A program made the position numbers and the translations under genes. Under the pieces are notes generated by a model that saw nothing but the letters and a program-made list of their open reading frames with translations, ran no database searches and was not told the DNA's origin. A stretch of 6,634 nucleotides of DNA, taken from a virus (lineage: Monodnaviria > Loebvirae > Hofneiviricota > Faserviricetes > Tubulavirales > Inoviridae). The stretch is from IMG/VR virus record IMGVR_UViG_2698536379_000001, one strand, 5' to 3'. Shown one piece after another: positions 6,387-6,526 of this stretch (position 1 is the first letter of the stretch; each line of letters begins with the position of its first letter).

Positions 6387-6526
6387 GGTCAGGCCGTTCA
6401 CTTACTGCTGACAGACATTTGATTCTGATTCGTTTGGAGAAACGGATGATTTTGAATCACTGTCGATAGTAGCCAGTTGACGGCCAGTGTCAACGATTCC
6501 CGCCAGATTCTGCCATCCTTACCATT

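Follow-up and report, generated by a model that had tools for sequence, protein, structure and literature searches.

The window analyzed here, by which we mean the whole stretch of 6,634 nucleotides, is identified by its sequence matches as a CUS-1/YpfPhi-type filamentous prophage at the Escherichia coli dif site, a system that is already known. About 100 complete E. coli genomes carried a prophage at the chromosomal dif that matched the whole window at 99.4 to 99.9% identity, with E. coli O55:H7 DEC5E as the top match (99.9%) and UTI89 also among the matches, and Yersinia pestis NCTC5923 matched the window as well. Considering the gene order, the intact dif at the 3' end, and the tandem copies, the window resembles CUS-1 (E. 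coli O18:K1:H7) and YpfPhi (Y. pestis) (PMC4266046), being 99.5 to 99.9% identical to UTI89, DEC5E, about 100 further E. coli genomes, and Y. pestis NCTC5923, but 1,217 bp that every database copy examined contains, namely an 82-aa ORF and the larger part of the secretin gene, are missing from it. Both CUS-1 and YpfPhi have been given as CTX-type phages (PMC4246890), and inverted XerC/XerD sites have been noted for YpfPhi (PMC4266046). The genes of the window run from an HTH repressor on the minus strand, whose stop codon is at position 1, through gII, gV, the coat genes, a DUF2523 protein, Zot/pI, and the secretin to small accessory ORFs, and the last of the plus-strand ORFs is a homologue of YPO2281, which adjoins attR (PMC4266046). 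The features at the right-hand end are as follows.

6138 to 6386, plus strand: last plus-strand ORF, YPO2281 homologue (RefSeq annotates 6189 to 6386 as WP_001298440.1)
6365 to 6494, plus strand: block with hairpins H1, H2, and H3, delimited by fold and distribution and confined to phages of the CUS-1/YpfPhi clade and remnants
6367 to 6400, plus strand: H1, straddling the stop codon of the last ORF
6403 to 6471, plus strand: H2, holding the TGATTC/GAATCA repeats and an inner hairpin
6420 to 6459, plus strand: core of H2, with two copies of TGATTC, CGTTT-GGAG-AAACG, and GAATCA (z = -2.9 for 6405 to 6470)
6476 to 6494, plus strand: H3, GTTGACG-GCCAG-TGTCAAC, from the fold and a compensatory change in Erwinia psidii
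6466 to 6493, minus strand: sigma-70-like TTGACA-16-TACTAT (10/12), a consensus match only
6495 to 6526, plus strand: conserved attP-proximal flank (..CGCCAGATTC..CC..ATT), common to related phages
6527 to 6537, plus strand: XerC-binding arm GGTGCGCATAA, the sole part of the phage attP kept at this end
6538 to 6554, plus strand: dif central region TGTATA and XerD arm TTATGTTAAAT, the host-derived side of attR
6555 to 6634, no strand: E. coli chromosomal flank right of dif, from the match extents of lysogens versus non-lysogens

The 140 bp between the last ORF, ending at 6386, and dif, starting at 6527, are non-coding, just where an earlier note made from the sequence alone had placed them, and its view of this stretch as non-coding phage DNA abutting dif in a dif-integrating, CTX-type inovirus was borne out (PMC4246890, PMC4266046).

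Several observations concern the remainder of the prophage. The missing 1,217 bp, at window position 6034/6035, correspond to L001 7519-8735 and take in the C-terminal two-thirds of the secretin (pIV) gene together with the 82-aa ORF; the truncation leaves a 142-aa ORF at 5628 to 6056, and the junction has no obvious microhomology. A phage with such a truncated secretin would not export virions on its own. In addition, the attL-proximal accessory module differs among lysogens (DEC5E 8880-10431 in L003, left of window position 1; 4237-5655 in L106), with a TIR-domain protein and a hypothetical protein as the cargo of DEC5E and other hypothetical proteins in UTI89 and M9682-C1; the pattern resembles that of a cargo hot-spot, which may collect defence genes. 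Plasmids are also occupied: the phage sits in a plasmid-borne Xer site, GGTGCGCATAA-TGTACG-TTATGTTAAAT, of the Klebsiella pneumoniae IncFIB/IncHI1B plasmid NZ_CP132684.1 (L024 1368-1395), and a K. variicola plasmid carries a truncated remnant. At the other end of the gene array, the gII start codon (window 619/620) is the exact start of homology with Salmonella, UPPhi-type, and L008-type phages, and the repressor gene with the divergent-promoter region (intergenic 448 to 618) is a separate, swappable module.

The dif junction and the folded attP

A perfect 28-nt E. coli dif occupies 6527 to 6554; most lysogens matched the window only up to 6554, whereas non-lysogens matched 6505 to 6634. The circular form of the phage carries TGTGCGACTCG-TTATGTTGAAA in place of the sequence at 6538 to 6554. 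No second dif-like site was detected in either orientation anywhere in the window, extending to its full length what the earlier note had reported of an inverted site, and the lack is explained because only the 11-nt XerC arm stays at this end after integration. The left prophage junction of DEC5E lies outside the window, beyond two cargo genes, where its attL reads, on the plus strand, host XerC arm GGTGCGCATAA, an 11-nt central region TGTACGACTCG, an XerD-like arm TTATGTTGAAA, a GC-rich hairpin, and an inverted dif-like site CTTTAGCATAA-CGTCA-TTGTGCGAACC. Moreover, the 9,565-bp circular 'untypable plasmid' NZ_CP128883.1 (L004) of E. coli TUM14759 is the phage in its circular replicative form, and in it the 6387 to 6526 region is contiguous with the attP arrangement, as is likewise the case in the circular contig L006.

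Two inverted dif-like sites on the same strand with a short spacer were seen in L004, L006, L007, and 12 other variants. Covariation across 15 variants of the ∼94-nt attP module revealed that 92.8% of cells were paired and that 9 pairs had changed on both sides, while none of 500 shuffles was as good and sliding the partners lowered pairing to 30 to 49%. The circular-form fold (z = -6.3) has a stem that starts at 6524, ∼3 nt before the XerC arm, with 6495 to 6523 unpaired and H3 folding alone. The attP is a CTX-type forked hairpin. In the circular plus-strand ssDNA, the XerC arm GGTGCGCATAA, the bulged 11-nt central region, and the XerD-like arm TTATGTTGAAA pair with the inverted site CTTTAGCATAA-CGTCA-TTGTGCGAACC across the GC-rich loop hairpin, and XerC, by analogy with CTXphi (PMC4246890), would exchange one strand pair at the border of XerC arm and central region, a step that replication would then complete. 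The outcome of integration is an intact dif at 6527 to 6554, with the 11-nt XerC arm at this end and the remainder of the hairpin beyond the window, at the far (left) end of the prophage.

The hairpins at 6387 to 6526, proposed earlier as candidate attP elements, are consequently misplaced in that role: the folded attP consists of the XerC arm at 6527 to 6537 plus ∼83 nt found after integration at the opposite prophage end. The region contributes nothing to the recombination stem, which begins at ∼6524, and other phages carry the same attP without the block. The comparison with CTXphi nonetheless held for the layout, since in the CTXphi attP(+), too, two inverted dif-like sites fold into a stem made up of a XerC arm, a XerD arm, and a central region that bulges (PMC4246890), and after integration one side again has a functional dif while the other has a non-canonical site. 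The CUS-1/YpfPhi attP differs from that of CTXphi in that the spacer between the sites is a compact, GC-rich hairpin of 33 to 34 nt, and 6387 to 6526 lies outside the stem, 5' of the XerC arm. The attP module remained 87 to 95% identical even where pI was only 44 to 50% identical, suggesting that the cassette moves between backbones. Read on the minus strand, the GC-rich loop hairpin is followed by TTTT (L004 minus strand ∼352-260), and judging by this sequence it probably also serves as terminator for the cargo operon on the minus strand.

Repeats and hairpins between the last ORF and dif

The tandem TGATTC-TGATTC at 6420 to 6431, GAATCA at 6454 to 6459, and GTTGAC-N7-GTCAAC at 6476 to 6494 were all found where the earlier note had put them; its inner hairpin is likewise present, but with a 4-nt loop and a right end one base earlier (CGTTT-GGAG-AAACG, 6431 to 6444) than the loop GGAGA and end at 6445 given there. 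Five copies of GATTC/GAATC, a motif chosen post hoc, fall within the 140 nt; this is the highest count in the window, where the mean is 0.41 per 140 nt. The 5- to 6-nt repeats are unremarkable singly and jointly beyond chance.

Folding of 6387 to 6560 as ssDNA gave one long imperfect hairpin at 6392 to 6485 (z = -3.7), in line with the structured region that had been described. With 26 more bases on the left, 6361 to 6500 gave three hairpins at -25.8 kcal/mol (z = -4.5), and none of 200 shuffled controls was as stable as the native fold. The single long hairpin and the H1/H2/H3 arrangement are two folds of equal energy, and 6361 to 6470 had the lowest z among 327 sliding 110-nt windows along the sequence. 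The minus strand folds about equally well (z = -3.1), indicating no strand-specific signal. As modeled, the hairpins are real as thermodynamic structures. An Rfam scan at E ≤ 1 of the window and three related genomes returned no match, and a blastn search of 6361 to 6526 against 50,697 phage records returned one spurious 30-nt match only and nothing to Ff/IKe; no description of H1 to H3 for CUS-1/YpfPhi was found in the literature searched.

A coding explanation was also considered and rejected. A 78-aa minus-strand ORF at 6398 to 6634 takes its ATG from the last three bases of the window and crosses from the host flank over dif into phage DNA. Conservation is lacking, as the flank varies between lysogens and variants carry frameshifting indels, and the ORF is almost certainly a gene-calling artefact. 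The 1-nt indels in L010 and L011, which shift its frame, exclude a protein-coding reading of the block on either strand. Minus-strand ORFs in the equivalent region of L005 and L006 were discarded as well, a 4-nt indel between the two being apparent on our reading of the sequences.

The flank next to dif behaves differently from the block, in that sister phages share only the dif-proximal ∼32 nt (6495 to 6526), possibly back to 6477. Set in register against the E. coli flank left of dif (L003 10535-10556, minus strand), 6505 to 6526 matched at 15 of 22 positions, but an un-anchored local alignment of the host and phage flanks did not rise above shuffled controls. AGATTC stands at -22 in the phage-free host flank and in several phages. 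The host-like flank could be either an old phage end left at the host dif or a host flank captured by the phage. Homology between H3 and a GGAAC-GCCA-GTTCC hairpin at the same place in other phages was rejected, as the alignment places the two differently and the likeness is one of analogy only.

Distribution of the block and a conserved hairpin upstream

The block with its flank (∼6365 to 6526) was found in 120 E. coli records, always in the context of a CUS-1-type prophage and often twice per record, because the prophages are tandem. Further carriers were two Klebsiella plasmids, IMG/VR contigs of the same clade, Y. pestis, Klebsiella indica, K. spallanzanii, and Erwinia psidii, and all copies were 91 to 100% identical. 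The distal part (∼6365 to 6476/6494) is restricted to the CUS-1 clade and its remnants. A dispersed repeat or MITE was rejected, given that all 204 E. coli copies lie in CUS-1-type prophage contexts with 1 to 5 per genome arising from tandem prophages, and so was a satellite or miniphage as the source of second copies, these being full tandem prophages.

Scanning one genome per species brought up nothing but near-identical copies, in Y. pestis, K. indica, K. spallanzanii, and E. psidii, and within the clade, where the copies are too alike for a real covariation test of H1 to H3, substitutions break and keep the pairs of the minimum-free-energy fold about equally. Two pairs in the middle stem of H2 are broken in VR50 and the Klebsiella-plasmid lineage, H2 in L008 has one compensatory pair (6408/6472), and one such change was also seen in H3 of E. 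psidii (6481 C>T with 6489 G>A). H1 appears, from the sequence, to be kept in L008 despite an insertion, and the left border of the block (∼6365) stays constant while the upstream gene changes (L008, L010). Fold stability, GATTC/GAATC enrichment, the fixed left border, the upkeep of H1, and the compensation in H3 suggest some constraint on the block.

Conservation of the repeats in related phages, the lack of which the earlier note had counted against its own reading, was not found: sister phages with the same attP and homologous replication or morphogenesis genes are without the block, as in the following four, which are given with the stretch between last ORF and XerC arm.

Salmonella prophage L005: gII start through secretin gene 80% identical in nucleotides; an unrelated stretch of ∼310 nt, z = -0.9
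L006: pI 73 to 74% identical; ∼310 nt of unrelated DNA, z = -0.6
L014: pI 73% identical; ∼37 nt, block absent
UPPhi-type prophage (E. coli EC23): gII/gV 80% identical, IKe-like assembly genes; ∼33 nt, block absent

The block is likewise absent from L042 (pI 73%), and it is absent from L005 even though the pI of that phage is 87 to 88% identical to that of the window. The z values of L005 and L006 led us to reject structured DNA 5' of attP as a family-wide feature. UPPhi901 sheds DNase-protected DNA (PMC7307601). Since sister phages do without the block, it is not the packaging signal, an origin, or the attP of the phage family.

A different element stands out upstream, at 6063 to 6107, where CCGGTCAGTGACAAAAC and GTTTTGTTGCTGTCCGG form a hairpin of 17 bp with one mismatch within a conserved stretch at ∼6040 to 6125. 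Its 45-nt core does not differ at a single position between the window (CUS-1), the Salmonella phage L005, and L006 (100% identity), with surroundings only 70 to 80% identical, and the gII of L006 and of the window align only locally, at 26% identity. The element recurs at 84 to 89% identity in UPPhi-type prophages, which have different, IKe-type assembly genes, and is present in 181 E. coli records in all; in the UPPhi-type copies, as we read them, one pair has switched from G-C to C-G, a compensatory double change, and at three others a non-Watson-Crick pair has become Watson-Crick. Conservation independent of the replication and assembly modules is the pattern of an element recognized by a host factor, and 6063 to 6107 is probably, on this comparative evidence, a host-recognized cis element such as a minus origin.

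Possible roles of the region next to attP

We regard it as probable, with moderate confidence, that 6387 to 6526 is the right-hand end of a large intergenic region, directly 5' of attP and not part of it, with a distal insert that is clade-specific, passive, and dispensable. The dif-proximal ∼32 to 50 nt would be a flank conserved among phages with this attP cassette, and the distal ∼90 to 110 nt (H1 and H2, perhaps H3) would be an imperfect palindrome inserted recently, and in this clade only, into a convergent intergenic region. Carried passively, this insert may, judging by the sister phages, be dispensable for integration, replication, and packaging in the phage family. Any function of the hairpins is most likely no more than auxiliary, complementary-strand priming being the leading guess and a minus-strand promoter with leader the next.

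Ff minus origins are often auxiliary, and the Ff hairpins B and C prime the complementary strand. The block shares with Ff (f1/M13/fd) several adjacent plus-strand hairpins in non-coding DNA downstream of assembly and secretion genes, but it has no sequence similarity to Ff/IKe, is not conserved among sister phages, and is separated from the secretin gene by accessory ORFs. In both position and evolution, 6063 to 6107 is the better Ff counterpart. That the block is a minus origin or single-strand initiation signal, with H2 and H3 in plus-strand ssDNA recruiting host RNA polymerase or primase for the conversion of ssDNA to RF, is unlikely in our estimate, although three stable ssDNA hairpins lie side by side in the intergenic region, a -35/-10-like match on the complementary strand has its -35 inside the H3 duplex, and an auxiliary nature would fit the absence from sister phages. 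L014, the UPPhi type, L005, and L006 need a minus origin yet are without the block, both strands fold about equally, and the -35/-10 spacing in the folded form does not look promoter-like when the sequence is read, the spacer including the H3 arm that pairs with the -35. Hairpin 6063 to 6107 is a far better candidate, being kept irrespective of the replication and assembly modules, as expected of a minus origin, whereas the block is not. A minus-strand promoter with a structured leader for an accessory gene, yielding an antisense transcript in CUS-1 where that gene has been replaced, is improbable. TTGACA-16-TACTAT (10/12, 6493 to 6466) is the best promoter-like match in 6000 to 6634, its hexamers are kept in L008, and a minus-strand gene of 81 aa starts ∼150 nt downstream; this is, however, a consensus match only, of a kind found 3 times against 0.8 expected in 635 nt, hexamer retention proves little among copies more than 91% identical, L010 is one base short in the -35 region, and CUS-1, the K. 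indica remnant, and L058 have no minus-strand gene downstream of it. The f1 origin has beta/gamma/delta repeats, a layout that the two direct repeats and one inverted repeat TGATTC/TGATTC/GAATCA resemble. It is nevertheless extremely unlikely that these are gII-binding repeats of a plus-strand origin, and the replication origin suggested earlier found no backing: the block does not travel with gII, being absent from L005, L014, and the UPPhi type at 70 to 80% nucleotide identity in gII, and the window has no f1-like nick motif.

A packaging signal should follow the assembly genes. The plus-strand imperfect hairpin (H2 or 6392 to 6485, 69 to 94 nt) is non-coding and downstream of the morphogenesis genes, where it could be bound by pVII, pIX, and pI like Ff hairpin A, and the packaging signal is unknown for integrative inoviruses other than Xanthomonas phages (bioRxiv 10.1101/2023.12.30.573655), but L005 shares the gII-to-secretin backbone (80% nucleotide identity, pI 87 to 88%) without the block, the same holds for L014, L006, and L042 with pI at 73%, and the middle stem of H2 is broken in VR50 and the Klebsiella-plasmid lineage. 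The hairpin that had been proposed for packaging is thus present, yet phages sharing the assembly proteins (L005, L006, L014, L042) lack it; the absence from L005, L006, and L014 excludes the packaging reading, to which we would give a very small chance at most. The accessory sequences of cer and psi lie directly 5' of the XerC arm, and the region here occupies the equivalent place, the ∼140 to 180 bp immediately upstream of that arm. A functional part of attP, as an extra stem, cer/psi-like accessory DNA, or pairing of 6505 to 6526 with host DNA to stabilize single-strand exchange, is still very unlikely, even with 6495 to 6526 conserved among phages with this attP and the 15/22 host match in register. 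The stem extends only ∼3 nt past the XerC arm and leaves the flank unpaired, no ARG box with ≤3 mismatches occurs in 6387 to 6526, the un-anchored flank alignment is no better than its shuffled controls, and, in a further difference from cer/psi, the distal block lacks conservation across phages that share the core site. CTX-type integration is not known to need accessory proteins of the cer/psi kind. Finally, 6365 to 6494 might be a cis-acting cassette (an auxiliary single-strand initiation signal or a packaging enhancer) that travels with the attP end and is swapped between inovirus backbones via hybrids copied from tandem prophages, and, separately, the flank 6495 to 6526 might aid CTX-type integration by pairing with host DNA left of dif after the XerC exchange; we hold this combination to be quite unlikely.

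The observation made on this region is confirmed and its interpretation partly supported, and hairpins H1 to H3 are clade-specific and, from sequence comparison, probably dispensable. For annotation, the DNA abutting the intact dif in CUS-1/YpfPhi-type prophages should not be equated with the attP structure, and the place to look for the recombinogenic hairpin is the opposite end of the prophage or the circular form. Hairpin-rich intergenic DNA of inoviruses can be clade-specific filler. For the enterobacterial dif-integrating inoviruses, the hairpin at 6063 to 6107 is a pointer to where conserved replication or packaging signals may lie.
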